Source: an uncultured virus (IMG/VR IMGVR_UViG_3300037991_001647)
Lineage: Duplodnaviria; Heunggongvirae; Uroviricota; Caudoviricetes
Length of the DNA: 64,000 bases
Direction: 5' to 3' (one strand)
IMG/VR virus record: IMGVR_UViG_3300037991_001647
Coordinates: 1-64,000 of that record
The translations under genes were made by a program, and so were the position numbers. Positions 1 to 53,316 of the stretch are shown piece by piece; position 1 is the first letter of the stretch, and every line of letters begins with the position of its first letter. Under the pieces are notes generated by a model that saw only the letters and a program-made list of their open reading frames with translations, was not told where the DNA came from and made no database searches.

Positions 1-259
1 ATTGAAATACTGCTTTTATGTATTCCATACAACGTGGATTCATCGTTGGCTCTGCACCTACGATTCTTATCATACACCTGCCTTGTAACCTTTTTAGAAA
101 ATCCACAAACTTATCTAAATCCATATCTGGAATATCTCTGTTTGGAATATAACAGTTTTTACAGGTCATATTACATTTATGAGTGATATCTGCCATAATA
201 TCCATAAATGTATTTTCTTCTGGCTGTTGTTCATAATAATTTAAGATTGGTACTTGCAT
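1..259 (-). CDS. radical SAM protein, N-terminal part (runs off the left edge)
   Basis: Not in the ORF track. Manual translation from the ATG at 259 gives MQVPILNYYEQQPEENTFMDIMADITHKCNMTCKNCYIPNR...RIVGAEPTM, with a CxxxCxxC motif and a GxEP motif. Confidence 0.85.
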   Translation of the reverse strand, partial: MQVPILNYYEQQPEENTFMDIMADITHKCNMTCKNCYIPNRDIPDMDLDKFVDFLKRLQGRCMIRIVGAEPTMNPRCMEYIKAVFQ

Positions 260-18790: not shown

Positions 18791-19977
18791 GATATATTAA
18801 ATTTGATGTAGGGGTTCTACATTTAGAATTAACCTCTAGATGCAATGCCCTTTGTCCTCTTTGTGCTAGAACAACAGGTCTAGATTACGATAGCCAGTTG
18901 TTAAAGAAACGTGATGACTTACCATTAATAGATACAGACCCAGAGATATTAAAAACAATGTTAGAAGAAATGAAACCTTTCTTGCCTAATCACGTTTTTA
19001 TTAATGGCAATTTTGGTGATCCAATAATGTATCCTCATTTATTAGATGTTATAAGAATGTACAAAGATGCTGGAGTGAGACAAGTAACTCTTAGTACAAA
19101 TGGAGGAGTACATAAACCAGAGTGGTGGACTGAATTAGCAGGTATAATGCGAAAGCCTGATAAAGTTATCTTTGCTATAGATGGCCTCGAAGATACTAAT
19201 CACTTATACAGAGTGAATACAAACTTCAAAAAGATAATGGAAAACGCACAAGCATTTATAAACGCAGGTGGTAGAGCAAGATGGGATTATATTGCATTTG
19301 CTCATAATGAACATCAGATAGACGAAGCAAGACAACTGGCAGAGGATATGGGTTTCTTTACATTTAGATATAAAAAATCAAATCGATATGTTATACCTAA
19401 AGATTACAATGCAGACCCTAATAGTAAACGAGAAGATGAAACAATAGAAAAGAAAACTACTATTAAGTTTATTGCTAAACAACACGTAAAGAAAGACAAG
19501 AAAGCAGAAACAGTTATATCAGCACCAAAGAAAACAGAGGCGTCAAATACTACAAAGAACTTTGAAAAGATATTAAAGAAACACAAAACGTTTGACAATT
19601 ATGTTAAAAGAACACAAATAGATTGTCAGACCGCAAGAGATAAAAGTGTTTTTATAGACTATAAAGGCTTTGTTTGGCCTTGTTGTTGGCAAGGACATTA
19701 CTATAGTTCTATAGGAGAAGACAAAGGTGTACAAAAAAGAATAGATGATAGAGTAGAACTTGAAAATAAATATGGTAAAGACTTTAATAATTTGCAAAAA
19801 CACAGTTTATTTGATATACTAAACACACCATACTTTTCAAATGATTTAGTTGAAAGTTGGAATGATGAAAGCAAACGTCTTTACATATGTGGAAAGACTT
19901 GTGGAAAAGAATTAGATTTCAGAGGAAATAGTGAAAAGAATTATGAAGATACAGAAATGAATAGGATGAACGTGTAA
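18769..19977 (+). CDS. radical SAM protein with C-terminal SPASM/twitch-like domain (paralog of 11769..12857)
   Basis: CNALCPLC, GNFGDP, TNGG, DGLEDTNHLYR, WPCC, CGKTC. Confidence 0.9.
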   Translation: MATQKSLRYIKFDVGVLHLELTSRCNALCPLCARTTGLDYDSQLLKKRDDLPLIDTDPEILKTMLEEMKPFLPNHVFINGNFGDPIMYPHLLDVIRMYKDAGVRQVTLSTNGGVHKPEWWTELAGIMRKPDKVIFAIDGLEDTNHLYRVNTNFKKIMENAQAFINAGGRARWDYIAFAHNEHQIDEARQLAEDMGFFTFRYKKSNRYVIPKDYNADPNSKREDETIEKKTTIKFIAKQHVKKDKKAETVISAPKKTEASNTTKNFEKILKKHKTFDNYVKRTQIDCQTARDKSVFIDYKGFVWPCCWQGHYYSSIGEDKGVQKRIDDRVELENKYGKDFNNLQKHSLFDILNTPYFSNDLVESWNDESKRLYICGKTCGKELDFRGNSEKNYEDTEMNRMNV

Positions 19978-21404
19978 TGGCTAGTGAAACGTTTTGTATA
20001 TTACCTTGGGTAAACATCTCTACACGTGCCAATGGAGACTTGCGTGTATGTTGTCACGCAAACCAAGGACCTACTCGTGGTATCTATAAGAAAGAGAATG
20101 GTGACAACTATAATCTAAAACAAGATAAGATTACAGATGCTATCAATTCTCCACTAGCAAAAGATATTCGTAAAAAGATGTTAGAAGGTAAATGGCATCC
20201 TGAATGTATCAGATGTTTACGTGAAGAAAAAGCAGGTATGAAATCTCGTAGAATAAACGATGGTGAAAGATTTGCTACACACTTGACTTGGGATCAAGCA
20301 GTAGAACATACAAGTGAAGATGGAACAATAGATTTAAATCATATCAAACAAACTTATTATGATATTAGATTAGGTAATTTCTGTAATCTAAAATGTCGTA
20401 TGTGTTCTCCAATGGATAGTAGTTCTTGGTACGATGACTATGTAAAAATGTGGGGTACAAATAAATTTAAAGACACTCACGGTGTTGTTGAGATGTATAA
20501 AAACAACAAAGGTAAGTTTACTGCACACGATTATGATTGGGTTAAGAAAGATAATTTCTGGGAGAACTTAAAAGAAACTGCCTCAGGAATGAAACACGTT
20601 TATCTAGTAGGTGGGGAACCTCTTATCATTGAAGAACATTATGACTTCTTAAAATATTGCGTAGAGAAAGATTACGCAAAAGATATGACTATTGAATATA
20701 ATACTAACTTAACAAATATACAACCAAGAGCATTAGAGTTATGGTTAAACTTCAAGCAAGTTCAGTTTGGTATATCAATGGACGGTATAGGTCCAACACT
20801 TGAATATATCAGAAACCCATTGAAAACTAAACTAATGGAAAAGAACTTAGCAAAACTTGATGAAGTAGGATTAGAAAAACTAAACTTTAGAGCCTGGATT
20901 GCATTTACAATAGGTGCGATGAATGCCTTTCATTTTACAGACTTTTTAAAATGGAAAATAGAACAAGACTTTGCTATTATATCTCCTATGTTAAAAAACA
21001 ATCCAAAGCCATTTATTAATGTGCATCCGATACACAGACCTTTTGAGTTATCAACTAGATTTCTTCCTAAAGATGTAAAAGACCAAGTACGTGATAAGTG
21101 GGAAGCATTTAGAACAGAATTTAAAACAGATATTGTAAACAATATAAACTTCCATTCATTAGCAAAAAAGAATCCTATGGCAATGGGATCAATTAAACCT
21201 GCAAATAAAGAGTGGGCAATAATGAAGATGGATCAATTACTAGATAGTAATTTAAAATTTATGTATGACGAAGATTGGTTTACAGAAGAAAATAATAAAA
21301 AGTTTTGGAACTATAATGGTAAATTAGATGACATTAGAAAAGAACAGATGCAAGAAAGTTTACCAGAATTATATGACGCAATGTTAAAGTATAGGGTAGA
21401 GTAA
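19977..21404 (+). CDS. radical SAM protein with N-terminal twitch-like cluster (paralog of 13929..15485)
   Basis: FCILPW..RVCC..CIRC, CNLKCRMC, VGGEP. Confidence 0.9.
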   Translation: MASETFCILPWVNISTRANGDLRVCCHANQGPTRGIYKKENGDNYNLKQDKITDAINSPLAKDIRKKMLEGKWHPECIRCLREEKAGMKSRRINDGERFATHLTWDQAVEHTSEDGTIDLNHIKQTYYDIRLGNFCNLKCRMCSPMDSSSWYDDYVKMWGTNKFKDTHGVVEMYKNNKGKFTAHDYDWVKKDNFWENLKETASGMKHVYLVGGEPLIIEEHYDFLKYCVEKDYAKDMTIEYNTNLTNIQPRALELWLNFKQVQFGISMDGIGPTLEYIRNPLKTKLMEKNLAKLDEVGLEKLNFRAWIAFTIGAMNAFHFTDFLKWKIEQDFAIISPMLKNNPKPFINVHPIHRPFELSTRFLPKDVKDQVRDKWEAFRTEFKTDIVNNINFHSLAKKNPMAMGSIKPANKEWAIMKMDQLLDSNLKFMYDEDWFTEENNKKFWNYNGKLDDIRKEQMQESLPELYDAMLKYRVE

Positions 21405-22126
21405 TGAAGATAGGATTATTTGGTGATAGTTTTGCACACGATGATGAAACAAAAACAGGCAAATCATACATAGAATATTTAAATGAAAGAAATGATTTTG
21501 AAATAGTAGCACACGGTATGAGTGGTTCTGGTATGTATTATTCATATAAAAAATTCTTAGAACATAATAAAGATTATCAAAAAGTAATTTTTATAACTAC
21601 ACACCCTGGTAGACTTTGGTTACGTAACTCAAAAAATTCGTTAGTAGAACATACTTATAACTTGGCAAGTGCAGAACATTTGCTTAAACACGAAACGAAG
21701 TTAAAGACCGAAGATGTAAAACGTTTAACCGCAGTTGTAGATTATGTTAAATACATATATAACCAAGAAGAACAACAAGACTATTGGAAGTTAATGTTAG
21801 ATAGAATTAAAAGTATAAGACCTGATGCACTGATTATAGATGCATTTCATATCTATAAACACGATGACAATACTAAAACAATAAACGAAACAGATTGTAT
21901 TGTATTGGAAGATTTAGCAAGATTAGATTTAATGAAGAACGGCAAACCAATACTAGGGTCATTGGGTGTAGAAGATATGAGAAAAACTCATTTAAGTGAG
22001 GCAAACTCAATAGTATTTGCAAACAAAATACTTGAATGGATAAAAACAGGAAACTGGTATTTTAAAGACAAAGATGAATTTTTTGAATCACAAGGAATAG
22101 AGGCATATTATAATGACGGACGTTAA
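21404..22126 (+). CDS. SGNH-hydrolase-like protein
   Basis: N-terminal FGDSF, GMSGSG and a C-terminal THLS..N. Confidence 0.55.
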   Translation: MKIGLFGDSFAHDDETKTGKSYIEYLNERNDFEIVAHGMSGSGMYYSYKKFLEHNKDYQKVIFITTHPGRLWLRNSKNSLVEHTYNLASAEHLLKHETKLKTEDVKRLTAVVDYVKYIYNQEEQQDYWKLMLDRIKSIRPDALIIDAFHIYKHDDNTKTINETDCIVLEDLARLDLMKNGKPILGSLGVEDMRKTHLSEANSIVFANKILEWIKTGNWYFKDKDEFFESQGIEAYYNDGR

Positions 22127-23276
22127 CAAAGACTCACTTTATTGGTCGCAATATGACTTTACTAAAATACCTTATGATGATATTGTAAAAGTAGGTCAAC
22201 GTACACTTTTGTATAGAGATTTATTTTCAGTATCTTGGTTGCTAGGACGTTTTTGTAATTACAAATGTAGTTACTGTTGGCCTTATGCTAGAAGTGATAG
22301 AAAAGACCATAGACCAACTGAATTGTGTTTAAAGACTATTGATGAAATAAAAAGACAAGCAAGAGAAAATGGTTTCAATAGTTTTCACTTTAGTTTGTCT
22401 GGTGGTGAACCTACATTTCATCCTGGTTACTTAGATATGCTACAACACCTAGCAGATGATGTTGACAATACAAATTATACAAGTGTTCATATGACAAGTA
22501 ATATTTCACGTAAAGAGAAATGGTTCTTAGAATATTGTCAGATTGCAGGACAATTTCATAGAGCAAGTATTACTGCAAGTTATCACAAAGAATTTGCTGA
22601 TAAAGAAGAATTCGCAGATAAACTTTTATTATGTATGGAACACGATGTACAAGTTACAATTAATATGGTTCTTGTACCTGAGTGGTTTGAAAGAGATTGG
22701 GATAACGCAATGTACTTTCATAACAGAGGTATCAATGTTACATTAAAGCCTCAATCAGATCCTACTGCTAGTTTTGTTGTTAAAGGTTATACAGAAAAAC
22801 AATTAGAAATTATGCGTAACGGTATGCCACAACGTGATTATACTACAGACATACAAAAGACTACAGGCAAAAAGATTATAAGACCTAAACCAAAGACAGG
22901 TATGTGGAAGATGGATATGCAGAATGGTGATGACAAATCAGTCCCACCAATTATGCAAGTAGAGTTTGAGGATAGTAAAGGTAAGAAATGGTATATGGAT
23001 CAAGCAGAACGTTTTAATGCTTTTAACTTTAATAAGTTCAAAGGTTGGGATTGTACTAGTGGGTTCAAAGGTATCATTATCAGAGAACCTGATGGGTCTA
23101 TCAAACGTTCATACAGTTGTGCAGATAAACCATTAGGTTATATTGAAAGTGGGTTTAAACTATTTGATAGTCCTAAACCTTGTATAAGTGAAAGTTGTGT
23201 TTCAAGTGCAGATAGCAAGATACCAAAGAGGGCACCTGGCGCAACAGTTCGAATATATCCAGGAGAAAAGATATGA
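22113..23276 (+). CDS. radical SAM protein (same subtype as 12857..13921)
   Basis: CNYKCSYC, SGGEPT, FKGWDC..G...SC...PC...CVS. Confidence 0.9.
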   Translation: MTDVNKDSLYWSQYDFTKIPYDDIVKVGQRTLLYRDLFSVSWLLGRFCNYKCSYCWPYARSDRKDHRPTELCLKTIDEIKRQARENGFNSFHFSLSGGEPTFHPGYLDMLQHLADDVDNTNYTSVHMTSNISRKEKWFLEYCQIAGQFHRASITASYHKEFADKEEFADKLLLCMEHDVQVTINMVLVPEWFERDWDNAMYFHNRGINVTLKPQSDPTASFVVKGYTEKQLEIMRNGMPQRDYTTDIQKTTGKKIIRPKPKTGMWKMDMQNGDDKSVPPIMQVEFEDSKGKKWYMDQAERFNAFNFNKFKGWDCTSGFKGIIIREPDGSIKRSYSCADKPLGYIESGFKLFDSPKPCISESCVSSADSKIPKRAPGATVRIYPGEKI

Positions 23277-24331
23277 AAAAGTTCTATGTAAAAGACTGTC
23301 CTGACCATAAACCAGTACACATATGGATAGGTGAATCGTTAGGTATGGAAGAGAAATTCATAAACAAAATGAAACCAAAGAATCCAGATGTACTATACGA
23401 GTTTGAGGATACTTTACTAGACTTAGAAAAACTTAAAGAAGATTCAGAAAAAGCATTTGAAGAATATGGTTGGTATGGGTTCTTAAATATCTTTGGTGGT
23501 AAGTTTGCTAGAAGTGATGGATACGGAGGTCTAAGTTTAGTTTATAATAAAGATTATAGATATGAAAATATACCTGATAATGCACAGACATTAGGATACC
23601 CTAGGTCTAATTTTCCAGATGAATTGTTTACAGAAAACTTTGAGTTGTTTGAAAAGGTAATGGAAAAAAGATTAGACAAAGATATATGGAGTGAAGCCCA
23701 AGAGTTTGGTATGCATCACGCATTTAGATTTTTACACAAACACGAAATAATTGATGAGAAAAAGTTAAATGAACTTTTAGCAAAGTTTCCTGATAGAAAA
23801 GATGTAGGTGAAAGAATAAATTTAAATACATATTCAGATACGTGGGGGTTCAATAGATGGAGTGATCCAGCAAAGTATGGATATCTGAATGAAATAGTTA
23901 AACGTGTAAAACGTTCTCCTGTTAGAAGTAGATTAGCACAAATAAAAAATATCGATACAGAAGAAAGAAAAGAACAAGCCAACAAATATCTTTGGCACAG
24001 AGATGATACTTGGTTTTATGAGTTGAGAATTAATCTTAGTTTACATAACGAAAATAATGTATATGGAATTGAGATTGAAAACTATGGATCTAAACCATTC
24101 ATTCCAGGTAATTGGTATGTATGGGATACTTACGTAACACACAGACCATATGTAAATCAAGCAATGCCAGGTAAAGCAAGAACAAATTATGTTTTAGCAG
24201 TCAACCCTTGGTTCGATTGGATTGAAGAAGAACAATGTTGGATACAAAATGAATTTTATGGCGAAAAGCATCCTGCTGATATGGTCATTGAAGGCGATGC
24301 AATAGAAGGGCTAAAGTTAGTGCAAAAATGA
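23273..24331 (+). CDS. putative 2OG-Fe(II) oxygenase-fold protein
   Basis: RSRLA..WHRD (HxD)..RINL..WDT..THRP. Confidence 0.5.
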   Translation: MKKFYVKDCPDHKPVHIWIGESLGMEEKFINKMKPKNPDVLYEFEDTLLDLEKLKEDSEKAFEEYGWYGFLNIFGGKFARSDGYGGLSLVYNKDYRYENIPDNAQTLGYPRSNFPDELFTENFELFEKVMEKRLDKDIWSEAQEFGMHHAFRFLHKHEIIDEKKLNELLAKFPDRKDVGERINLNTYSDTWGFNRWSDPAKYGYLNEIVKRVKRSPVRSRLAQIKNIDTEERKEQANKYLWHRDDTWFYELRINLSLHNENNVYGIEIENYGSKPFIPGNWYVWDTYVTHRPYVNQAMPGKARTNYVLAVNPWFDWIEEEQCWIQNEFYGEKHPADMVIEGDAIEGLKLVQK

Positions 24332-30275: not shown

Positions 30276-31652
30276 TTATGCGGCTTTGTTATCGTAGTAT
30301 GCGTATTCGCCAAATGGAGGGACTATCTTATCGCTACCGTGAATAACGAAAAGTGATTCACAATAGTTTGCATTACCCCACGAACCAAACGGATAACCAT
30401 CTGTGAACATAATGAATTTATCAGGGTTGATATCATTCTCTTCCATAAAGTTGTAGTTACATTCGAAGTCAGTACCACCACAACCGATTGGAACATAATC
30501 TTTTAGTTCCTCAGCATTCATTGGAGTAAACTCTTTGAAAGACTCTTTGTATACCTGAGTATCAAAAGTCCAAATCTTGATGTTGAAATCTTGAAACTGT
30601 TGCATAATGCCATAGACTTCACCAAGAAAATCTTTTACCATTCTATCATCAATAGAACCTGAAACATCAAGACCAATAGCAAGATTGATTTTTTCTTCAT
30701 TGTCTTGACCAGGAAGATAGATACCCATTGACCTAGACTTCCTAGATTGTCTCATCCAAGTGAAGTCAGCCTTAAGTAAACTTTGTACTGAAAGATTAAT
30801 CATCTCCCTCCAGTCCATCTTAGGCTCTGTCATTTCCTTAATCATTCTTTTGATATCGCCAGGCATATTACCAGCACCAGCAGATTGAGCCGCCTGAATA
30901 ACAGCCTGTTTCATCTGGTCTTTAATTTGTTTTGCCTCTGCTTTAGAAATTTTGATTGGTGCTTTTCTACCTGTTGGATCATTACCAGCAGGAACACCTT
31001 CACCTTGCTTGTCACCATCTTTACCATCACCATTAAGGTGTATGTCTAAAGTTTGTTTGTCCTGATGCTTTTCTTTATTTGATAAAAGAACCTCATAAAT
31101 TTCCTCAGTATACTTACCGTGATATTGTGAGTCATACAATGCAGACTTTGGCATTACACCAATTTTGCTTTCAACACAAGCCTGATTAACTTTATAATCA
31201 GCGGCGATGTTCCACATCTTAGCATCACGTTTATCTTCTGGAAAATCTAATAGACGACCGCCTGTACCACAGTGGTCATAAACACAGTGCATTACCTCGT
31301 GACCAACTACAAAGTCAATCTCTTCCGGAGTTAATGTTCTGAAAAAATCTGGGTTGTAATAAAAATGTTTACCGTCAACTGCGGCTGTTGGACACCATTC
31401 TGCCTCAACCAATTTCAATCGTGTAGCAAGTGTACCAAAGAAAGGATGTTTGATAAGCATCCTAACACGACCTGCAACAATCATTTCTTTAACTTGAGCA
31501 TCAGTATAATCAAATACTACAGGCTCCTCAGAAGCCTCGTCAATCTCTACATTTGAATCTTTCAAAAGGTCATCAACTAAAGAATCTAAGTCTTTTTCTT
31601 CACCCATCATTTGGTCGTGTATTTGACCTTGCATTGCTTGTTCCGAGTTCAT
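30276..31652 (-). CDS. VWA-like domain protein with N-terminal HExxH metallopeptidase-like domain (DUF2201-type)
   Basis: PFFG.L, TAAVDG, HEVMH, WNIAAD, DVSGS (MIDAS), GGTDF, FTDG. Start is ATG 31652 (AAAGG RBS) or 31676. Confidence 0.88.
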   Translation of the reverse strand: MNSEQAMQGQIHDQMMGEEKDLDSLVDDLLKDSNVEIDEASEEPVVFDYTDAQVKEMIVAGRVRMLIKHPFFGTLATRLKLVEAEWCPTAAVDGKHFYYNPDFFRTLTPEEIDFVVGHEVMHCVYDHCGTGGRLLDFPEDKRDAKMWNIAADYKVNQACVESKIGVMPKSALYDSQYHGKYTEEIYEVLLSNKEKHQDKQTLDIHLNGDGKDGDKQGEGVPAGNDPTGRKAPIKISKAEAKQIKDQMKQAVIQAAQSAGAGNMPGDIKRMIKEMTEPKMDWREMINLSVQSLLKADFTWMRQSRKSRSMGIYLPGQDNEEKINLAIGLDVSGSIDDRMVKDFLGEVYGIMQQFQDFNIKIWTFDTQVYKESFKEFTPMNAEELKDYVPIGCGGTDFECNYNFMEENDINPDKFIMFTDGYPFGSWGNANYCESLFVIHGSDKIVPPFGEYAYYDNKAA

Positions 31653-31672
31653 TTTTGATATACCTTTCGCCT

Positions 31673-31718
31673 TCATTATGTATATATAATAACACGATTC
31701 TTGAATCTGTCAAGTTTT
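31673..31718 (-). promoter_or_regulatory. sigma70-type promoter with internal GATTC-N2-GAATC palindrome, copy 1 of a 46-bp repeat
   Basis: aaaacTTGACAgattcaagaatcgtgtTATTATatatacataatga on the - strand. Confidence 0.75.
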
Positions 31719-31727: not shown

Positions 31728-32876
31728 TTATTTGATAAGGATACTAGCATTAGTACCACCAAAACCAAAGGAATTGCATAAAACTGACTTAATTTCGTGT
31801 GATTCTGATTTACTACGTATATTTGGACTATATCCGTCTAAAACCTCGTCTACGTTCACCGTAGGCGGTATAATGCGGTGTTTTAGAGACAATATAGATA
31901 GTGCTAATTCAATAGATCCTGCGGCGGCCATAAGATGTCCTATTTGAGATTTATTCGCAACTAATGGAACTTTTCCAAGTCCTAATCTATTAATAGCATC
32001 TAGTTCTACATAATCTCCTAATGGTGTACTTGTGGCGTGAGCATTAATTAAACCTGGGGTTTTACCTTTTAGTGTCTCTTTCATACATCTTTCAATTTGC
32101 TCACCTTCTGGATGAGGTGCGACAACCTGATATGCATCATTAGTCATAGCATATCCATCAATTTCGCATAGTGTATTTGCTTTAAATGTATTACTCAATA
32201 CGAATACTGCACCACCTTCACTTAACACTAATCCATCACGTTTAGTATCCCAAGGTCTTGATGCTATTTCTGGAGTATCATTATACTTGGTTGTCAATGC
32301 TCTTAACTTACACATTTGTTTAAATGCATCTTCTGTAATACACCAGTCGATTGCTCCAGCAATTACATTATCACATAGACCTGCCTCAATCATCATTGCA
32401 CCCCATATGACACTATAGATACCTGTACTACAAGCACTCATTGTAATTGTACTTGGACCTTTGAAACCATATTTTATATTGATATTGTTTGCAATCATAT
32501 TAGGACAAAATGTATAACTGTTATCCCTATTCTCTTTATTTGCTTGTAATGTTTCTAAGTACATTGCATATCCAGGAGATATCATAACACCTGTTCTATT
32601 GGGATCAAGGTCACTTGTATCTAAATCTGAAACTAAAGCAATAGCCCATTGCATATGTTCTGGTATTCTATCACGTTCTTGTTCTGTTATAATTGGATAA
32701 TCATCTGCATTGAAATGAAATTCACCTGCAACTTTTGACCTTGTATATCTACTTGCATCAGGATCGAATTTAGTTATTGGACCGTAACATACTTTATTAT
32801 CCGTAATGCCTTTCCAAGTATCATCTAAATTACCAAATGGTGTAAATGCTGACATTGAATTTATATATACGGTCAT
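31728..32876 (-). CDS. fabF: beta-ketoacyl-ACP synthase II-like
   Basis: SACSTG (catalytic Cys), SRPWD..RDG.V..EG, NAHATST, KSQIGH, NSFGFGGTN. Confidence 0.9.
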   Translation of the reverse strand: MTVYINSMSAFTPFGNLDDTWKGITDNKVCYGPITKFDPDASRYTRSKVAGEFHFNADDYPIITEQERDRIPEHMQWAIALVSDLDTSDLDPNRTGVMISPGYAMYLETLQANKENRDNSYTFCPNMIANNINIKYGFKGPSTITMSACSTGIYSVIWGAMMIEAGLCDNVIAGAIDWCITEDAFKQMCKLRALTTKYNDTPEIASRPWDTKRDGLVLSEGGAVFVLSNTFKANTLCEIDGYAMTNDAYQVVAPHPEGEQIERCMKETLKGKTPGLINAHATSTPLGDYVELDAINRLGLGKVPLVANKSQIGHLMAAAGSIELALSILSLKHRIIPPTVNVDEVLDGYSPNIRSKSESHEIKSVLCNSFGFGGTNASILIK

Positions 32877-33472
32877 AACTTCTCCATTGTATTAAAGTCT
32901 CTATAATGTAATTCATAAACATCTTGATATCTATTGTATAGCATTAGGTCTTTATGAATTAAAGTATACTTATTTTCTTTAGGAAACATTATCCTAGCAA
33001 CTCTTGAAAACTTATATTCTAACCCACTTGGATCAGGTACAGTATTTAATATTGTATTAACAGCCGTAACAATTTTAGTTGCACCTCTTTCAATACACCA
33101 ATCTACTGCGTAAGGTTGAATTGCTCTATGATGAAATTCATTTAATAGTCTATGGTCTTTAGTTCCACTAGCAGTACCTCTCCAAGGTTTTAAAGTATAA
33201 ACTCTATATGCAATCATATAACATTTAGGAGATACGTGAGGCAGATAATGAGCCGCACTCATTGATATCATTTTATCTTTATGTTTGATTACCCACCAAG
33301 CCTCTTCATCGCCCCATTTTCCAAACTTAATTTTAGAAAGTGAAGAATTATTATCCGCACCTTCATTGCCACATTCCTCTAAGAATGTTTTAAATTCATC
33401 TAAGTTTTCTGTAGTTACTTTATGAACCGAGAATTTAAGTTTATCTCGCCCTGTGAATTCGCCAAGTATCAT
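32873..33472 (-). CDS. GNAT-fold acyltransferase-like protein
   Basis: beta-strand pattern MISMSAA..IAYRVYTLKPWRG resembles GNAT motif A. Confidence 0.45.
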   Translation of the reverse strand: MILGEFTGRDKLKFSVHKVTTENLDEFKTFLEECGNEGADNNSSLSKIKFGKWGDEEAWWVIKHKDKMISMSAAHYLPHVSPKCYMIAYRVYTLKPWRGTASGTKDHRLLNEFHHRAIQPYAVDWCIERGATKIVTAVNTILNTVPDPSGLEYKFSRVARIMFPKENKYTLIHKDLMLYNRYQDVYELHYRDFNTMEKL

Positions 33473-34264
33473 CTATACACGTTTCAAAATTGCCCAAATT
33501 AAAAATCCTGCTGGATCAAACTCCCACCATTTATGTCCGAAATAATACTTACCTGGTTTTGCGTGATGATTATTGTGCCACGCCTCTCCTCCACTTAACC
33601 AAGCAAAGATTGGATTGTTGTTAGATTGGTCTTTAGTTTCAAACCAACGATAACCTAAAAATTTATAATGTGATAATACGCCATCTAAAATATGTCCTGC
33701 TATTGTGGCGTTCCAGAACCCACAGAAACATACGAATAGACCAAAGAATAATGGACCACCAATTAGTAATGCACCTAAATAGATTACTGCTTGGTACTTC
33801 CAATAATGTCTGTGAAAGAATACAATACTAGGCTCTTTAAATAAATCACGACCTGAACTTGTGTATCCACCAGACTTTGCAAATCTTCCTGTTGCTCCTC
33901 TAAACCAACCTATTACGTGAGGTGAATGAGGATCGTTTTCTGTATCTGAATGTTTGTGATGATATCTATGAAATAAAACTGTAACTAATGGTGAACCTGG
34001 TGATCCGTGACAAAACATTGCCATCATTAACCACTTGACCCATTCACTTGGCTTCCAACTATGATGTGATGCCCATCTGTGAAATCCTGCATTTGCACCT
34101 ATGCACATTACAAGATATGCCCATACGAATGCCCAACCTAGCATAGACCAAGCACCTATATACATTGCATAAGGTACGGCTATTGCAGTTACAATGGCAT
34201 TAAATATCCATTGCGTGTGCATTTTTCTTTCGTAATCAAACGATATTCCTAGAAACTTTCGCAA
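33473..34264 (-). CDS. membrane fatty-acid (delta-9 type) desaturase
   Basis: His boxes HRWASH, HRYHH..SD...DPHSP and GEAWHNNHH, plus EFDP. Probable start is TTG 34264 behind GGAGG (the ORF track extends to 34351). Confidence 0.92.
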   Translation of the reverse strand: MRKFLGISFDYERKMHTQWIFNAIVTAIAVPYAMYIGAWSMLGWAFVWAYLVMCIGANAGFHRWASHHSWKPSEWVKWLMMAMFCHGSPGSPLVTVLFHRYHHKHSDTENDPHSPHVIGWFRGATGRFAKSGGYTSSGRDLFKEPSIVFFHRHYWKYQAVIYLGALLIGGPLFFGLFVCFCGFWNATIAGHILDGVLSHYKFLGYRWFETKDQSNNNPIFAWLSGGEAWHNNHHAKPGKYYFGHKWWEFDPAGFLIWAILKRV

Positions 34265-35930
34265 GTACTTCCTCCAAAACTTGTTTATGGTCTTTACCAT
34301 CAAATAAGAATTTTCTATGCCAATCGTAGGCGTGAGGTGCGTACTTGGCATTCTCTTTACTTGATGTATGGATATAGTTAAACATTGTGTTTGCCTTCTC
34401 CATTAATTCTCTCTTTGTATTTAGTTCGATTTTATCATCAAATTTATTCATATATACGGCTAACATAGCCCACATAAAGTCTGGATACACACCGTTACCT
34501 ATATAGTTTACAGGTCTTCTGTAATGTTTCCAACACGCCTCTTTATGATTATGGTCAATACCGTATTGTTTTTGTTTCTTCCAGAAAGGTGTATCCTCTC
34601 TATCTGTTAATGTAAAGTGATAAGCAATAAAGTCTGCAATACCATCTTCTAATTTGCACATATTTCTATTGTAAGCATTAATTGATGATGGACCAATTAC
34701 TTCATCTGCCTCTTTAGCACGATTAATAATTCTGTTTGTTAATTGAATACAAGCCTGTGCAACATATAATGAATTTGCTTCCATTGGTTCTACGAATGCA
34801 CCTGCCATTCCGATACCAACAACATTTTTATTCCAAGGAGTTTGCATACGACCTGACTCCCAAGTTATATGTCTTGGTTCTTTTATAAATTCATATCCAT
34901 CCCAATATTTGATAAACTTTTCTTTTGCATCTTCCGGAGAGATTTCAGTTCTATCAAAAATATATCCTGAACCCATACGATTGAATAATGAAATAATAAA
35001 TGTCCAACCTTCATCACAAGCATAACTTTGTGTATAAGGTCTAAACTCTTTATATACATCGTTGTATTTTACTGGACCTACGATTGCATCACGTGTAAAG
35101 ATATGGTCATAATTATGCCAACCATTATCCATAGTACCTGTTAAAATTCTATTAAAGCCTGTACAATCACAGAATAAATCTGCCTCGTGTTCAGAACCAT
35201 CTTCTAAAACTAACTTTTGAATATAACCTTCTGCGTCTTTAGATATATGTTGTACGTGACCTTTAACGTGTTTAACTCCGTGAGGTATAGCAACTCTATC
35301 TCTAACTACTTCTGGAAATCTTTCTGCATCTACGTGATATGTTTTTGCCTGCCAAGAACCAACTAGAATATTATCATCCATATCAAATGGTGCTTTATTC
35401 ATATCCATTAAGAATGTTGCCTCTTGCATATCCTCTGACATTTCCCACCAGTTCTTTCTCTTATCTCTAAGCAACTGTAACCAGTAGTCATTCCATTTAT
35501 CATCGATACCAGGTTTACCTTTTGAGTTATGGAAAAAGTCTTCTGTATCTAATTGATGATAGAAACTAGTTGTTAAATGTTTTTCTGGTAATGTAAATGA
35601 AAACGAGAAATATTGTTCATCGTATTTGGAGCACCACCAATGATTAGTAACGTGGTCACGTTTGCCTGGTATATTCCAACCAACAAACTTGTTACCTAGT
35701 TTATAAATCGAATTTGTGTGGTGCATCCAATCACGTTCTTCGATCCCCATTTCTTTAAAGAAGTCTCCTAGTTGTGGAATAGTACTTTCACCCACACCTA
35801 GAATACCTATCTTATCACTTTCGATAAGTGTAATATCAATCTCTGGATTCTTGTATTTTAAATATCCGGCAGTAAACCAACCTGCGGCTCCGCCTCCTAA
35901 TATGACAATTTTATTTACTTTACTTTTCAT
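34236..35930 (-). CDS. flavin-dependent halogenase, tryptophan halogenase family
   Basis: GGGAAGW, GVGEST, YKLG (catalytic-Lys region), YHVDA, DCTGF, GWTFII (variant of WxWxI), R.GSGY, FVEPMEA. Confidence 0.88.
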   Translation of the reverse strand: MKSKVNKIVILGGGAAGWFTAGYLKYKNPEIDITLIESDKIGILGVGESTIPQLGDFFKEMGIEERDWMHHTNSIYKLGNKFVGWNIPGKRDHVTNHWWCSKYDEQYFSFSFTLPEKHLTTSFYHQLDTEDFFHNSKGKPGIDDKWNDYWLQLLRDKRKNWWEMSEDMQEATFLMDMNKAPFDMDDNILVGSWQAKTYHVDAERFPEVVRDRVAIPHGVKHVKGHVQHISKDAEGYIQKLVLEDGSEHEADLFCDCTGFNRILTGTMDNGWHNYDHIFTRDAIVGPVKYNDVYKEFRPYTQSYACDEGWTFIISLFNRMGSGYIFDRTEISPEDAKEKFIKYWDGYEFIKEPRHITWESGRMQTPWNKNVVGIGMAGAFVEPMEANSLYVAQACIQLTNRIINRAKEADEVIGPSSINAYNRNMCKLEDGIADFIAYHFTLTDREDTPFWKKQKQYGIDHNHKEACWKHYRRPVNYIGNGVYPDFMWAMLAVYMNKFDDKIELNTKRELMEKANTMFNYIHTSSKENAKYAPHAYDWHRKFLFDGKDHKQVLEEVLAKVSRNIV

Positions 35931-37297
35931 TCCGTCTCCACAAACTTTTCTCTAACTAGTTGCCTCTGAACTTTACCCATTTTATTTCTAGGTAAAGATT
36001 CTTTAGTAACTATAATTTCTTTTGGTAACTCATACTGAAACAATTTATCTTTAATAAAGTTCAATAAATCAATACTATTTATCTCTGAATCCGATACACA
36101 AACTGCGACAATCTCTTTCTCTCCAAGGTCTCTATCTCTATATGTAACACAAACTTCATCAATATTAGGGTGTACTAATAAAGCATTTTCTATACCTACA
36201 GGAGATACGTTAAAACTATTTACTTTTATTAAATCATTCTGCCTTGATTTGTAAAATAATAGATTATGTTTACGTTCAAATACATCACCTGTACACCAGT
36301 ATCCTTCGCTATCTATAGGTGCATCATAGTTTATATAACCTTTCATAAGAGGTATACCTCTTAACCAAAGCACATTAAATCTATCTAATTTATATTCATA
36401 ATTTTTAGTTACGTGTAATTGTAAAGGATGTTCATCATTTGGTTTAATTAAATTCGTAAAAGGCGGGACGTGTGTTTCTGTACAACCATAAAAGTTTCTT
36501 ATCTGAGGAACACCCATATCAAATAATGTATTCAACATCTCCTCAGGTATAACTGTACTACCAACACATAATGTCTTCCAATGAGACATATCGTGTTCAC
36601 TCCAGCCTCTAGTTTTTGATAAAGCAATCATCATAGCAGGAACGATAAGACCTATAGTTGGTTTCCAATTCTTTAGTAGTTCAATAAACTTTCGTGGATT
36701 AAACATTTCCATTACAACCGTAGAACCTTTCATTAGACCTGGCAGAGGAAATAGATATAAGCCTGCAATAGTTGATGGTGGGAGTTGTGCTAACACTACA
36801 TCGTTTTCCTTCATCTCCAAAATTTCCATACTTTGGACACACGCAGTTACACACGCCAACCTATTGTGAGCCACTGCTTTAGGTTCACCAGTTGTACCAC
36901 TAGTGAATATAACAGTGAATAGGTCGTTAATACTCCTCGTATAAACTAAACCCTTATTGTGAGGTTTGAGGTTTGTTGCATCCTCTTCGCTGAGAATGAC
37001 ATGGTCAGGTTTACTTGCTGACTTGATACCTTCGATTACTTTATCTGGTAGATTTGGAAACGTTGGCATAAATGTAATACCTAAGGCATCACAAGCCAAT
37101 ACCATTCTTACGTAATGATATTCTTTATCACTGGCAAATAAAACTTTATCGCCTGGACTCATAGCAGTTGACAGTATTGCTATTAACTTTTCAATACTTT
37201 CAACCAGTTCCTTATATGTATACTGTTTATCGTGACATACAAGGGCGAGTTTATCGCCATTAGTTTTAGCCCGTGCTTTTATTGTTTCCCAAATCAT
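35927..37297 (-). CDS. AMP-dependent acyl-CoA/acyl-ACP ligase (ANL superfamily)
   Basis: FTSGTTGEPKAV, FYGCTET, TGD, R..DLIK, LPRNKMGKV. Confidence 0.9.
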   Translation of the reverse strand: MIWETIKARAKTNGDKLALVCHDKQYTYKELVESIEKLIAILSTAMSPGDKVLFASDKEYHYVRMVLACDALGITFMPTFPNLPDKVIEGIKSASKPDHVILSEEDATNLKPHNKGLVYTRSINDLFTVIFTSGTTGEPKAVAHNRLACVTACVQSMEILEMKENDVVLAQLPPSTIAGLYLFPLPGLMKGSTVVMEMFNPRKFIELLKNWKPTIGLIVPAMMIALSKTRGWSEHDMSHWKTLCVGSTVIPEEMLNTLFDMGVPQIRNFYGCTETHVPPFTNLIKPNDEHPLQLHVTKNYEYKLDRFNVLWLRGIPLMKGYINYDAPIDSEGYWCTGDVFERKHNLLFYKSRQNDLIKVNSFNVSPVGIENALLVHPNIDEVCVTYRDRDLGEKEIVAVCVSDSEINSIDLLNFIKDKLFQYELPKEIIVTKESLPRNKMGKVQRQLVREKFVETE

Positions 37298-37302: not shown

Positions 37303-37331
37303 ATTATAACAAAAAAAGGGAGAGAAGTCAA
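37303..37331 (-). promoter_or_regulatory. sigma70-type promoter overlapping a terminator
   Basis: TTGACT-N17-TATAAT, with the ATG 5 nt after the -10 box. Confidence 0.7.
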
Positions 37332-37344
37332 TACCTCTCTCCCT
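37311..37344 (-). terminator. Rho-independent terminator after the AAA ATPase
   Basis: AGGGAGAGAGG-tattga-CTTCTCTCCCT stem running into a 7-T tract on the - strand. Confidence 0.8.
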
Positions 37345-37369: not shown

Positions 37370-38497
37370 TTATGCGTTATGAGCCTCGATAATTAGTTTA
37401 CCATACTGCTTGAAGAAGTCCTCGATACAAGGAACTTTTCTAGGCTCTAGTGGAAGTTTGTAAACTTTCAATGCAGTTCTACCACCTAGAACAATCATTT
37501 CAGTTTCAAAGTTGTCCATCATAAACTTGAAAAAGTTATTAGCCATTTTGTACAACTCGTCCATTTTGCCTTTGTTCTTATCAGCAAACTCCTTCAGTTC
37601 ATAACAAAGTGAAGTTGTAAGTGAGAACATTGCAGAGATTTCCTTACCCTCTCTTGAAAGTGTTTTTACTTTACCTGAAAGAATATCAGTAGGGTTTGGA
37701 AGTTTCCCAGAAATAGCCCTGTGAGCCATAAACTTTGTTGCGATACCATCACCAACAGTACCAGCAATCAAATCGTGCAACTTGCTATCCTCGATAGTCT
37801 CACCTTCTACTGGAAGAAGTTGACTAGTAAAAGTCCAAGACCTTGGAGTAGCAAAAGCCCTTGATGCAGTTCTAGGGTCAAAGTTAAACAAGTCCATCTT
37901 GTTTGATGTTAAGTAACCAACAACATCAGAATGGATTTTGTTAGTGATTGCCCATACCTGCCAATCGTTAAAATCAACACCCATTTCTAAGTGTACGAAC
38001 CTGTTAGCAAGTGGAGAAGGCATTCTATAAGCAACACCTCTATCGCTCTCCCTGTTACCAGCCGCCACGATAAGAACGTTATCAGGAAGTTTATAACTAC
38101 CTAAACGTCTATTAAGAATAAGTTGATAAGCCGCCGCCTGAACAGATTGCGGTGCTTGGTTCATTTCGTCCAAAAACAATACAATGTTTTCAAACTGGTC
38201 AGCCAACTCTTGAGTAGGCAAATCAGCAGGCGGAGCCCACATCATTTGACCTGTTTTATCATTGTAATAAGGGATACCCCTTAAGTCAGTTGGCTCCATA
38301 AGAGCAAGTCTCAGGTCAATCATATAACCTGAACGTTCCTGAGTGATTGTTTCAACAATCTCAGATTTACCGACACCCGGAGGGCCCCACAAAAAGATTG
38401 GTCGCTTTCTATTAAAAGCATAATTTACTTCATCTTTGATATCGCTAGGCTTAACGATCCTAACATCCATATCATTCATTGAAACTTGAGCAGACAT
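37370..38497 (-). CDS. MoxR-like AAA+ ATPase
   Basis: Walker A GPPGVGKS, EPTDLRGIP, Walker B LFLDE, AAGNR, PLANRF, TPRSW. Start is ATG 38497 (AAAGGA RBS) or 38521. Confidence 0.92.
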   Translation of the reverse strand: MSAQVSMNDMDVRIVKPSDIKDEVNYAFNRKRPIFLWGPPGVGKSEIVETITQERSGYMIDLRLALMEPTDLRGIPYYNDKTGQMMWAPPADLPTQELADQFENIVLFLDEMNQAPQSVQAAAYQLILNRRLGSYKLPDNVLIVAAGNRESDRGVAYRMPSPLANRFVHLEMGVDFNDWQVWAITNKIHSDVVGYLTSNKMDLFNFDPRTASRAFATPRSWTFTSQLLPVEGETIEDSKLHDLIAGTVGDGIATKFMAHRAISGKLPNPTDILSGKVKTLSREGKEISAMFSLTTSLCYELKEFADKNKGKMDELYKMANNFFKFMMDNFETEMIVLGGRTALKVYKLPLEPRKVPCIEDFFKQYGKLIIEAHNA

Positions 38498-38517
38498 ATT
38501 TTCAGTTCCTTTCTTTG

Positions 38518-38563
38518 TCATTATGTATACACTATAACACGATTCTCGAATCTGTCAAGTTTT
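38518..38563 (-). promoter_or_regulatory. sigma70-type promoter with GATTC-N2-GAATC palindrome, copy 2 of the 46-bp repeat
   Basis: aaaacTTGACAgattcgagaatcgtgtTATAGTgtatacataatga on the - strand. Confidence 0.75.
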
Positions 38564-41343: not shown

Positions 41344-42351
41344 TTATTCCATTAAACTCTGCGACATTTTTTGACTCTTAGGACCGTCAATAATTTGTCG
41401 TTCAAATTCTCTTAAACGTTTATAGACACTCATAAGTTCAATAATAGTCGGCCAAGCCTTTAATAGATATTGCATTGAACCTTCTACTCTACCAAATGCT
41501 CTAATTATTTGTTGCATAACACCTAATGTCACAACTCCTGCAACAATGGCTGGTGCTAGAAATACATAAGCACTTAAAACATTTGCTTGTAGATATGCAA
41601 TACGCCCAATGTTGAAATACAAATAACGCAAATATGATTTAAAATGAATACCTCTAACACCATCAAACAATTCTTCTATTGTCTTTGGTCTTACTGTATT
41701 ATCATCTTCTGCGATAACAAGTATTTTTCTATAAGCGGCCTCTTTCTTCTGTAAGTCATATTCAACTCCTACTAGTCGTAATAACCAACCTAATAAGATT
41801 AAGAATGCAGTACCACCTACAGACCAAAGTATTGCACCTGTAATCAATCCATATTGCCAATCACCAAAGAAGAAGATTGGAATACCAACTGATAATCCAA
41901 ATAAGATAGGAACAAACTGAACAAGTACCATAATTGATTCAATAAAACTTGTACCAAGTCCTTCCATAATTCTTGAAAACTTAATCGTATCTTCTTGTAC
42001 CCTTTGTGCGGCACCTTCAATAGTTCTTGCTTTGTCGTACACAGAATGATACCATTCTACCATTGCAGTTCGCCATCTAAATAAAAAGTGTGCAGTAAAA
42101 AAACTAACTGCAACTGCAATAGCAACATATATACCTGCTAGATATATAAAACTAAACAGACTTGCCCAATACTCTCCTATAGTAATAGCATTAGGTTCTG
42201 CTAGGGCTTTTTGAATCATATCATAGAATTGACCAAACCATTCATTGATTTTAACATCAATTTCTACTTGTATCCATAGTGAACTTAGTATCAATGCTGA
42301 TCCTAACCAAGCCCACAATGCCCATTTTTTTGTTGTAAAAAATCTAAACAT
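41344..42351 (-). CDS. sbmA: SbmA/BacA-family peptide transporter
   Basis: V.INEW...FYDMIQKAL, FRWRTAM, IEGAAQRVQEDT..F, QKKEAAYRK.LV..ED, WPTIIELMS.YKRL..FE. Confidence 0.9.
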   Translation of the reverse strand: MFRFFTTKKWALWAWLGSALILSSLWIQVEIDVKINEWFGQFYDMIQKALAEPNAITIGEYWASLFSFIYLAGIYVAIAVAVSFFTAHFLFRWRTAMVEWYHSVYDKARTIEGAAQRVQEDTIKFSRIMEGLGTSFIESIMVLVQFVPILFGLSVGIPIFFFGDWQYGLITGAILWSVGGTAFLILLGWLLRLVGVEYDLQKKEAAYRKILVIAEDDNTVRPKTIEELFDGVRGIHFKSYLRYLYFNIGRIAYLQANVLSAYVFLAPAIVAGVVTLGVMQQIIRAFGRVEGSMQYLLKAWPTIIELMSVYKRLREFERQIIDGPKSQKMSQSLME

Positions 42352-48016: not shown

Positions 48017-48913
48017 TCACGTACCCCAGGCGTTTCCGAATAAACTGATGTGGAGTCTTGGCGTGAACCTCCAACCCCTTTCCATACAGACTTCAGCCAC
48101 TTGTTTAACATTAAGATTATATTCTTCACTTCTACCGCCCAATGGCATAAGATAGACTGGACAGGTGATACCAACTTCTTTGTATTCATCAACAGCCCGA
48201 TGCACTTCATCAATATCTGTAGTATCAGCAACGACAAATTTGAGATACAAATCGCTATTGCTAATGCTATTGTAATCACGGACAATATCAGGTCTGATAG
48301 CAGATTCCCAAGATTCTCCAGAAACGGATAACTTAGGCGAACACGACCAGGTGACTTTAAATCTTCCTTGATTATTGAGATAAGTTCTGAAATCTTCGTG
48401 TAGTTTTTGTGTAGAATTTGTTTCAAATGTAACATTTTTTAAATCCTCCATTCTTGGGTGTTCAAACAATTCAATATACAATCTTTGCCAAGCAAGTAAA
48501 GGTTCACCGCCTGTCATTATAAGATGAACATCTTGACCATTATCTTGCACCCATTTACCATTAGGAGTAAGACTTAGTAGATGTTCTACTACTTCATCAA
48601 CTGTAGCCTGTTTATTGAAGTGTTTAAACTCTGGATATATACTTGCATATGTATCACAACCTGTGTGAATTATAGGCAAGTCTTCAAATTCTTTTGTGGT
48701 CTTATGTACATCATCATCAATTAACTTTTTAACTTCGTCATTATATCTATTACCCATTTTGTGTTTTTCATCACGCATAGGTTCACCACGTGCTAAACCA
48801 AAATTCATACAACGAAAGTTACAACCAAATGTACGTAAGAATACACTAGGTACTCCTACGAATTTGCCTTCACCTTGAACACTATAAAATGCCTCTGAAT
48901 ACCTCAGTTTCAT
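48017..48913 (-). CDS. queE: 7-carboxy-7-deazaguanine synthase (radical SAM)
   Basis: EAFYSVQGEG...GVPSVFLRT.GCNFRC...GCDT, TGGEPL, ETN, SPKL, LKFVV, RLH. Confidence 0.9.
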   Translation of the reverse strand: MKLRYSEAFYSVQGEGKFVGVPSVFLRTFGCNFRCMNFGLARGEPMRDEKHKMGNRYNDEVKKLIDDDVHKTTKEFEDLPIIHTGCDTYASIYPEFKHFNKQATVDEVVEHLLSLTPNGKWVQDNGQDVHLIMTGGEPLLAWQRLYIELFEHPRMEDLKNVTFETNSTQKLHEDFRTYLNNQGRFKVTWSCSPKLSVSGESWESAIRPDIVRDYNSISNSDLYLKFVVADTTDIDEVHRAVDEYKEVGITCPVYLMPLGGRSEEYNLNVKQVAEVCMERGWRFTPRLHISLFGNAWGT

Positions 48914-48915
48914 TA

Positions 48916-49593
48916 TTATTTGTGTCCTTTCATACTTAACATTAGGTTATAGAATTCTTGTTTAAGATTAGGATCGTCCCTAAACTTACCTAGCATAACT
49001 GCCGTAGTCATATCGCTATCGTGTTCTTTTACACCTCTATGTGTCATACAATGATGTTCTGCTTTTACAACAACTGCAACATTAGGTGTCTTTGCATATT
49101 GCACAAGTTTATCTGCAATCTGCGTTGTCATTTCTTCTTGTATCTGAGGTCTTTCTGCAATATGATGAACAAGTCTATTAAACTTTGATAGACCAATTAC
49201 TTCTTCTTCTGGAAACACACCAACCCAACATTTACCTACAATGTTTTGAAAGTGATGGGCACAAGTACTACGAATAGTGATTGGACCTGTTGTATACAAG
49301 TTGTTGTATCCCATATTAGGAAAACTTGTTACTCTTGGTTCTGGTGCATATCTGCCACCAAATGTTTCATTTAAAAACATTTTAGCAACACGTTTTGCAG
49401 TTTCTTTTGTATTGTGGTCGTTTGCAGTATCTATAACTAGACTTTGCAATACCCTTTCAAACTCGTTTTGTACTTCAAGTTGAAGTGACTCAAGTTCACC
49501 GGGTTTCATAAACTCTGAAATATTGTCGTTACTTTTGAATTTTGCTTTAGCCGTAACGAGGCGCTCTTTGATTATGTCGGAAGTCTTTCTCAC
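48916..49593 (-). CDS. folE: GTP cyclohydrolase I
   Basis: T..RVAKM, STCAHH, IGLSKFNR, RPQIQE, HHCMTHRGV. GTG start. Confidence 0.95.
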   Translation of the reverse strand: MRKTSDIIKERLVTAKAKFKSNDNISEFMKPGELESLQLEVQNEFERVLQSLVIDTANDHNTKETAKRVAKMFLNETFGGRYAPEPRVTSFPNMGYNNLYTTGPITIRSTCAHHFQNIVGKCWVGVFPEEEVIGLSKFNRLVHHIAERPQIQEEMTTQIADKLVQYAKTPNVAVVVKAEHHCMTHRGVKEHDSDMTTAVMLGKFRDDPNLKQEFYNLMLSMKGHK

Positions 49594-49626
49594 GTACTAA
49601 GTTCCTTTCTATTGATATATCTTATT

Positions 49627-49655
49627 AGTATATATGATTAGTTGACCAATGTCAA
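49627..49655 (-). promoter_or_regulatory. sigma70-type promoter for folE-queE
   Basis: TTGACA-N17-TATACT. The -35 box is one arm of a TTGAC-N4-GTCAA palindrome. Confidence 0.65.
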
Positions 49656-49659
49656 TAGT

Positions 49660-51762: not shown

Positions 51763-51940
51763 CTGTTACTTCTTTCTCAAGTTTCACTATTTCGTCTTTT
51801 AATTTTAGTTTTTCGACTTTCATATTTTGAACGTCAGAATGTCTATTATACTCTTTTATTATCTCGTTGTCAAGATGCCTATGCACTTCTTTTAACTTTT
51901 GTAATCTTCTTGACTTTCCTCTTAGACCTGTTGCCATCAT
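51746..51940 (-). CDS. small coiled-coil protein, DUF465/YdcH-like
   Basis: L...H..LD.EI...K..KL.LKDEI pattern, with a GGAG RBS. Confidence 0.65.
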   Translation of the reverse strand: MMATGLRGKSRRLQKLKEVHRHLDNEIIKEYNRHSDVQNMKVEKLKLKDEIVKLEKEVTDGKLL

Positions 51941-51961
51941 ATAATACTCCTTTTGTTGAGT

Positions 51962-51989
51962 TACTATAGGGGAAAACTCCCCTATAGTA
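51962..51989. terminator. perfect 11-bp stem-loop between the permease and the DUF465-like gene
   Basis: TACTATAGGGG-aaaact-CCCCTATAGTA. A T-tract follows only on the + strand. Confidence 0.55.
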
Positions 51990-52000
51990 TTTTAAATTTG

Positions 52001-53293: not shown

Positions 53294-53316
53294 TATATTT
53301 CCTCCTGTTAGTTGTA

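Follow-up and report, generated by a model that had tools for sequence, protein, structure and literature searches.

The locus described here raises the question of whether five adjacent phage genes, for an acid-adenylating ligase, a halogenase-family flavoenzyme, a desaturase, a GNAT-like protein and a FabF-type ketosynthase, form one biosynthetic pathway, and on which carrier protein such a pathway would run. The genes occupy positions 31728 to 37297 of the window, meaning the whole 64,000-nucleotide stretch analysed (uncultured Caudoviricetes virus, IMG/VR record IMGVR_UViG_3300037991_001647), which covers the first 64 kb of a virus record of 71.8 kb with an estimated completeness of 20%. 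The cassette is real, optional and conserved, and it is probably one pathway. On balance it is considered to be the enzyme core of a phage-owned pathway dependent on acyl carrier protein (ACP), in which a short modified acyl group is passed to an amine, a reading held with slightly more confidence than doubt. The cassette and its flanks are arranged as follows.

37370..38521, minus strand: MoxR-like AAA ATPase, flanking gene (from Pfam and relatives)
37303..37344, minus strand: moxR terminator hairpin (37344-37317, with T-run) overlapping the cassette promoter TTGACT-17-TATAAT (37331-37303)
35927..37297, minus strand: ANL-family acid-adenylating ligase, 456 amino acids (aa), PF00501 and PF13193
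34236..35930, minus strand: tryptophan (Trp)-halogenase-family flavoenzyme, 564 aa, PF04820
33473..34264, minus strand: membrane desaturase with three His boxes, 263 aa from TTG, PF00487
32873..33472, minus strand: predicted GNAT-fold acyltransferase, 199 aa, with invariant N41 and R90 and no canonical coenzyme A (CoA) P-loop
31728..32876, minus strand: FabF-type ketosynthase, 382 aa, PF00109 and PF02801
31686..31713, minus strand: sigma-70-type promoter of the vWA gene, closing the cassette; near-identical over about 46 nucleotides (nt) to the promoter upstream of moxR (38558-38531)
30276..31676, minus strand: DUF2201 metallopeptidase/vWA protein, flanking gene, directly after moxR in empty-site relatives (from Pfam and locus comparison)

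The original prediction was of five co-oriented genes of these families, and the Pfam matches bear it out except for the 199-aa open reading frame (ORF), which has no significant Pfam match. The catalytic motifs that it reported are all present in the window proteins. Overlapping or abutting stop and start codons are found at all four junctions: ligase/halogenase and GNAT/FabF are ATGA overlaps, halogenase and desaturase overlap by 29 nt, and desaturase/GNAT is a TAG-ATG abutment. An ATG at 34351 was considered as the desaturase start and rejected; the TTG at 34264 behind GGAGG is more likely, and L052 and L053 have the same Shine-Dalgarno sequence and TTG.

The cassette was also thought to have its own promoter, and the site 5' of the ligase matches 11 of 12 sigma-70 consensus bases. 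The promoter scan as a whole yielded fewer sites than shuffled sequences (29 against a mean of 41.6), therefore the support for this promoter is its position and the similar TTGAC element 5' of the ligase in related loci. A hairpin like the moxR terminator is also present 5' of the ligase in related loci. Empty sites have moxR, the terminator, one promoter and vWA in that order; in filled sites the cassette lies between two promoters. The roughly 46 nt common to the moxR-block (38558-38531) and vWA (31713-31686) promoters have few mismatches, the spacer including AATCGTGTTAT, and the same stretch occurs on contigs with other flanks. It is possibly a shared operator or recombination site.

Synteny elsewhere was named in the prediction as a check, and among 69 moxR loci from IMG/VR the core order of ligase, halogenase, optional desaturase, GNAT, optional desaturase and FabF is kept in 29. 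The other loci are 24 without a cassette, 7 with a degenerate ligase variant, 6 cut within the cassette and 3 ending at moxR. All five genes are under purifying selection, with ratios of nonsynonymous to synonymous substitution (dN/dS) of about 0.05-0.2, values that are approximate, dS being almost saturated for several of the pairs. The window cassette is a mosaic of alleles, its halogenase being 85% identical to L014/L020 and its FabF 75% to L014, and its desaturase 79% and GNAT 68% to L052. In a tree of 38 distinct MoxR rows, with L074, L079, L046, L051 and L060 left out, cassette carriers are found in several clades. Empty sites are in more than one part of the tree, one of them sister to cassette carriers, and the empty state needs at least two changes. 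Cassette gain and loss are not distinguishable from this tree.

The desaturase had been counted among the five parts of the cassette. It is present in the window with its three His boxes, but it is not a defining part and should be seen as accessory. One or two desaturases occur in 15 of the 29 complete cores and none in the other 14, and desaturases are also present in 3 of 14 cassette-free genomes, which together rule it out as a defining component.

The cassette is carried by a marine jumbo phage of roughly 340 kb. The phage records nearest by MoxR are PA5oct/MIJ3/Paride-like jumbo phages (53%), and a relative with terminal repeats, G001, is complete at 342,607 bp. Sequencing runs that hold the sequence are marine, 4 of the 22 listed having been compared with the window. 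In contigs of RNA libraries X1 and X2, from one study, the ligase and halogenase are covered with at most a few differences, and contigs of library X5, from a second study, cover the GNAT-fabF region; these matches indicate presence in RNA libraries, not transcription. The GC content of the cassette is like that of other accessory genes and of replication genes of the phage.

A ligase profile run against GTDB genomes, a pattern search that finds close relatives only, gave one locus, a phage-type moxR-ligase-vWA contig within a metagenome-assembled genome (MAG). The contig L188, placed in a Planctomycetota MAG, carries moxR, a degenerate ligase and vWA and is a piece of this phage lineage; it is probably misbinned and is no evidence of the host. 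Matches in the GenBank phage collection are only 21-39% identical and resemble host DNA in phage records. The FabF scan of viral contigs had no match, which is a sensitivity miss because relatives exist in the moxR loci.

It had been stated that the cassette contains no ACP gene, and this holds. The reliance on host ACP that was proposed with it does not, since the phage encodes its own ACP on a contig 99.9% identical to the window and the complete relative has ACPs and AcpS. Two features outside the cassette are relevant here.

2..259, minus strand: 5' part of a 306-aa radical S-adenosylmethionine (SAM) gene cut by the contig end
25532..26569, plus strand: alpha/beta-hydrolase-fold protein with invariant S200, D291 and H326; candidate thioesterase/transferase

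Metagenome contig L187 is 99.88% identical to window positions 2-4045 and extends past the left end of the window. It contains the full radical SAM gene followed without a gap by a 78-aa ACP (4708-4944) about 660 bp left of window position 1, with a GIDSL motif and a PF00550 match (E 2e-11). L187 is possibly the same data as the source of the window, yet still shows what lies past the contig end. In 5 of 5 loci that share this neighbourhood, an ACP comes after the radical SAM gene. In the window phage this ACP is about 32 kb from fabF; a PF00550 search of the window's own genome was negative because the contig is only 20% complete.

The ACP tracks the cassette among relatives. In a search of 50 of the 69 records, mostly the longer ones (cassette 1.92 Mb, empty 1.87 Mb), PF00550 was found in 13 of 27 cassette records against 0 of 20 empty-site, 0 of 2 degenerate-ligase and 0 of 1 unclassified records. 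For records of at least 60 kb the counts are 11 of 11 cassette-bearing and 0 of 11 empty-site. The complete G001 has three ACPs and AcpS, whereas AcpS was found in 0 of 5 genomes with an empty site, one of which is the 92%-complete G006.

Homologues of the alpha/beta-hydrolase are present in 4 of 18 records with the ligase and in 0 of 14 empty ones. These adjoin the ACP in G001, G010 and G030, and in L028 the homologue is directly after fabF, as is a 210-aa desaturase in L055. Genes therefore move between the ACP locus and the cassette. A fold search with the hydrolase had no match at E ≤ 0.001; the best was 1.1e-3, and all were alpha/beta hydrolases. FabD, FabG and FabA/Z families (PF00698, PF13561 and PF07977) were found in 0 of 5 records, the complete G001 among them, and judged by its gene content the set is not a complete type II fatty-acid or polyketide synthase. 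Amino-sugar acylation was also considered; full-length DegT aminotransferases are in 1 of 18 ligase-bearing records and partial ones in 4 of 14 empty records, showing no link.

The ketosynthases of these loci are a distinct clade of 88 full-length clusters that are 55-100% identical, with the next matches at 36-38%. Using the feature set of PMC9006962, the catalytic triad (Cys149-His280-His314 in the window) is present in 88 of 88, the Lys in 87 and both Thr in all 88, and the GFGG gate loop is kept. The pocket is remodelled. Relative to the next-best matches, GSGIGG is replaced by S-P/S-G/A-[LFIY]-S, Gln stands at G201 in 88 of 88, some 8 residues are missing and several pocket glycines are exchanged for larger residues. 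The housekeeping I108-F202 back gate is Tyr/Met in the window, and the I and F pair is found in 2 of 88 clade members compared to 14 of 16 next-best matches. The window protein scores 262 bits against the NCBIfam housekeeping FabF cut-off of 494. The ketosynthase is therefore likely to be specialised for its substrate, as far as residues can tell.

The ligase has the ANL features of P-loop (TSGTTGEPK at 132), YGxTE (YGCTE at 270), TGD (336) and C-terminal Lys (PRNKMGK at 436). Its amino-acid-binding position is LPPST with no Asp, which we take to mean that it is probably not an amino-acid adenylation domain. It reaches no NCBIfam cut-off among the matches listed, and by its motifs is an apparently intact ANL enzyme without a close characterised relative.

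That the 199-aa protein is GNAT-like was confirmed at the level of fold (predicted model pLDDT 89.9, Foldseek E 8e-7, structural Z 10-11). The CoA P-loop Q/R-x-x-G-x-G/A is present in 0 of 28 close and 2 of 99 distant GNAT members. Loss of this loop is a mark of carrier-dependent GNATs (PMC11685415), and this together with the ACP co-occurrence is an indirect sign of carrier dependence in the phage enzyme. It shares the GNAT fold with FeeM, a synthase of N-acyl amino acids (Z 10.5, root mean square deviation (rmsd) 3.9, 155 aligned), and RpaI, an acyl-homoserine lactone synthase (Z 9.8, rmsd 3.8, 152 aligned, rank 44). The top Z is 11.3 and both are tied with many ordinary GNATs, so the fold of the predicted model alone does not separate FeeM, RpaI and ordinary GNATs. 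No LuxI or FeeM family model in Pfam or NCBIfam matched the protein.

The flavoenzyme was scored with motif definitions from PMC8407142 and PMC12645471. It has the FAD-binding GxGxxG (GGGAAG at 12), the catalytic Lys equivalent to K79 (Lys77, in 18 of 18 and all 58 full-length rows), the active-site Glu (Glu384, in 52 of 52 clade members) and FX[DE]PX[EFL] (FVEPME, with the Phe in 47 of 52). The prediction of a halogenase was right as to the Lys, the GxGxxG and the WTFII reading. Halogenation itself is not established, with two motifs altered in 52 of 52, and from the residues the odds that the enzyme halogenates are about even.

Load, extend, modify and transfer on the phage ACP is the simplest reading that would use all of the constant parts. 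Every reaction in it is inferred, and so are the sequence of the steps, the length of the chain, which amine accepts it, the halogen and the biological role. The ligase would adenylate a small carboxylic acid and attach it to the phage ACP, which AcpS of phage or host would have converted to the holo form. The ketosynthase would extend it with host-made malonyl units to a 3-oxoacyl-ACP, and the product would stay in this form because the phage has no reductase or dehydratase. The C2 of a 3-oxoacyl-ACP is activated and suits electrophilic halogenation. The flavoenzyme may modify the acyl group either by halogenation of this C2 or by oxygenation, with about even odds, and the optional desaturases could introduce a double bond. 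The GNAT would then transfer the finished acyl group to an amine, giving an N-acyl amide, and the alpha/beta-hydrolase may release or edit the acyl group.

A fuller version is more tentative and rather doubtful. Here the cassette, ACP, phosphopantetheinyl transferase, radical SAM enzyme and hydrolase would be a split but self-sufficient pathway making a halogenated N-acyl amide early in infection, as a signal or a host-directed or surface modification, with swaps of cassette genes diversifying the product. Virion lipidation appears somewhat disfavoured by the host-polymerase-type promoter.

Several observations weigh against the ACP-dependent pathway. In 7 loci the ligase is kept without its P-loop or C-terminal domain at dN/dS 0.13-0.17; purifying selection on these degenerate ligases means that the first gene has some function for which catalysis is not required. 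Such loci are always without the ketosynthase, usually have a different GNAT and often a 227-aa mini-ligase. In the flavoenzyme WxWxIP is replaced (GWTFIIS at 308 in the window), the second Trp being Phe in 52 of 52 clade members, and Fx.Px.Sx.G reads FVEPMEANS, with Ser changed to Ala/Gly and Gly to S/V/I/A/T in 52 of 52. Active halogenases lacking WxWxIP do exist in some cases (PMC8407142). The family usually takes free aromatic substrates, and no PF01613 flavin reductase was found in G001. A dedicated flavin reductase was looked for more widely; PF01613 is in 0 of 5 records, and nitroreductases are in both G001 and the empty-site G006.

The ACP association is likewise based on fragments and few independent lineages, and Fisher values overstate its strength. 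The ACP genes are about 25-50 kb away, beside radical SAM or iscA-like genes, and could serve other jobs. The short chain is also less secure. I108F restricts E. coli FabF to short chains (PMC9006962), however the F/Y at the I108 gate in 29 of 88 clade members is always paired with Met at F202. This covarying Met may cancel the effect, which weakens the case for an I108F-like gate, and short-chain specificity is only plausible from the residues.

Degenerate ligases of 341-369 aa with a destroyed P-loop head the site in L022, L033, L034, L036, L042, L043, L067 and L188. A 185-aa GNAT, a DUF6356 protein and the 227-aa mini-ligase, which also ends at the hinge, often come next. The set may be an adenylation system that is split, or one that is non-catalytic and serves as sensor or scaffold. 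A second GNAT and mini-ligase module is found apart from the cassette at G001:43809-45042 (L091:5809-7042) and L134:1543-3008, followed by sulfotransferase-like and uncharacterised genes.

The alternative that survives best, although unlikely, is a CoA or adenylate route. This would start from a free aromatic acid, to which the flavoenzyme adds a halogen or a hydroxyl group. Once activated by the ligase, the acid would be joined to an amine by the GNAT, which may instead acylate a protein; ligase and GNAT are then the core, and the ACPs belong to radical SAM or Fe-S functions. The nearest solved halogenases are indeed free-substrate Trp halogenases, and among solved structures the ligase is nearest to 4-coumarate and feruloyl CoA ligases, with which it shares about 25% identity. 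In Foldseek the GNAT has its best TM-score (0.58) with a Pat GNAT whose acetylation targets are acyl-CoA synthetases. Ligase-GNAT pairs also occur without a ketosynthase, as the second locus in G001 and as a natural fusion to an AMP-binding ligase (P0120) among the 232 representatives of the GNAT family; the fusion is also in keeping with the ACP-dependent pathway. A search for the gene context of P0120 found none. The degenerate-ligase loci suggest that ligase and GNAT are an older unit with a non-catalytic element, and keep the route alive. The route would, however, leave the core-fixed ketosynthase without a job, and the lack of a CoA P-loop in the GNAT and the ACP that tracks the cassette are also against it.

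Remodelling of membranes or fatty acids is improbable. The ketosynthase, ACP, ligase and desaturase would adjust host lipid synthesis during infection, with the halogenase and GNAT as passengers. These four are all families of fatty-acid type, one ACP type resembles a housekeeping ACP, and cassette-free relatives have desaturases too. The supposed passengers are nevertheless more constant in the cassette than the desaturase, the ketosynthase pocket is unlike cellular FabF at many invariant positions, and there is no FabD/G/Z.

The least probable reading is that of an insertion hotspot between two promoters in which unrelated accessory genes collect and act independently; the site does take such genes (HD-domain-like, a 266-aa ORF, DUF6356 and a lone 210-aa ORF) and the window cassette is an allele mosaic, but four genes keep a fixed order with translational coupling across several MoxR clades at 58-75% ketosynthase identity, all 41 IMG/VR ligase matches are on contigs of the moxR set, and the ACP co-occurs. 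The lone 210-aa ORF, which has no Pfam match, fills the site after moxR in L023, L024, L076 and L079, and ORFs resembling it adjoin a radical SAM gene in L133 and L134.

The ACP-dependent set resembles several known systems and is a member of none, as the defining linkage or partner genes are missing. SbzL-SbzG-SbzI of altemicidin has an adenylating enzyme, a carrier protein and an amide-forming GNAT without a P-loop (as described in PMC11685415). Beyond these parts the phage set has a ketosynthase, a halogenase-family enzyme and desaturases, its ACP is unlinked and the likeness is drawn at the level of enzyme types; SbzI is not among the 50 listed GNAT fold matches. In chloramphenicol biosynthesis an AMP-ligase, an ACP and a flavin halogenase are proposed to supply the halogenated acyl group of an amide (cmlM/cmlJ/cmlK/cmlS/cmlT, with a phosphopantetheinyl transferase nearby), by steps termed obscure (PMC4249514). 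The Cml subcluster has reductases and, in the gene table of that paper, no ketosynthase or GNAT. The flavoenzyme of the phage belongs to PF04820, the Trp-halogenase family.

The JamA-JamB-JamC alkyne starter cassette has a ligase, an ACP and a membrane desaturase acting on a short acyl chain, types of protein that the phage has too (PMC8341276). JamABC, as described there, feeds a polyketide synthase-nonribosomal peptide synthetase line and has its ACP in the operon, whereas in the phage the ACP is distant and the desaturase optional. A halogenase, JamD, accompanies the Jam system. VirX1 of cyanophage Syn10 is a viral PF04820 protein with the catalytic Lys and Glu of the window enzyme (E 3e-51; PDB 6QGM). 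It acts on free aromatics and no cluster is listed for it in the text cited (PMC8407142), whereas the window enzyme is in an operon and departs from two motifs.

The original prediction considered the cassette undescribed. No matching description was found in the literature, although a supplement or a closed paper may contain one. In a survey of phage-borne clusters the prophage clusters are 99.3% bacteriocins, the exceptions given being a partial NRPS, ectoine, a type III PKS and a homoserine lactone synthase; the survey has biosynthetic genes in phage in common with this work and, in the text available, none that matches the five-gene set (bioRxiv 10.1101/2020.10.01.322628). Cyanophage halogenases and ACPs are listed as separate genes in PMC10452541. 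Bacteriocins of temperate phages account for nearly all phage-borne clusters described so far, and the viral halogenases and ACPs on record are single genes. The present analysis adds that the phage encodes an ACP itself, that a hydrolase is linked to it, that pocket residues of the ketosynthase covary and that a degenerate ligase is conserved. If the pathway is as proposed, giant marine phages would perform small-molecule chemistry, unusual in a virus, through a conserved acyl pathway of six or seven genes with its own carrier protein. A viral halogenase-family enzyme would then have a candidate natural substrate, and marine organohalogens could have a viral source. In the fuller version above, the product would be an organohalogen metabolite made by a virus.

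Other ACP loci were seen in these phages. At G001:32729-34825 (L090:13729-15825) a housekeeping-like ACP, a type seen only in cassette-bearing records, is found with two iscA-like genes, a nitroreductase and an ExbB/TolQ-family gene. Another phage cluster (L132:3466-8204) has a cupin, the same radical SAM family, an ACP, two desaturases, an aldolase-like ORF and a 348-aa ORF presumed to be TauD-like.

Elsewhere in the window, about 8 radical SAM-type genes (CxxxCxxC motifs, two confirmed by Pfam) are at 9256-24331 and 62587-63927. This run is accompanied by hydroxylase/cupin genes, a carbamoyltransferase (1814-3379) and glycosyltransferase-like genes, and is kept in G001. Two short N runs (read as XXXX) at 60396-63927 are assembly gaps in otherwise open ORFs. 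A 7-deazaguanine DNA-modification-like gene set is at 48017-54858, its genes being taken from their motifs to be QueE-, FolE-, QueD- and TGT/DpdA-like. An SbmA/BacA-family peptide transporter (PF05992, E 1e-139) is at 41344-42351, with relatives that are 93-95% identical.

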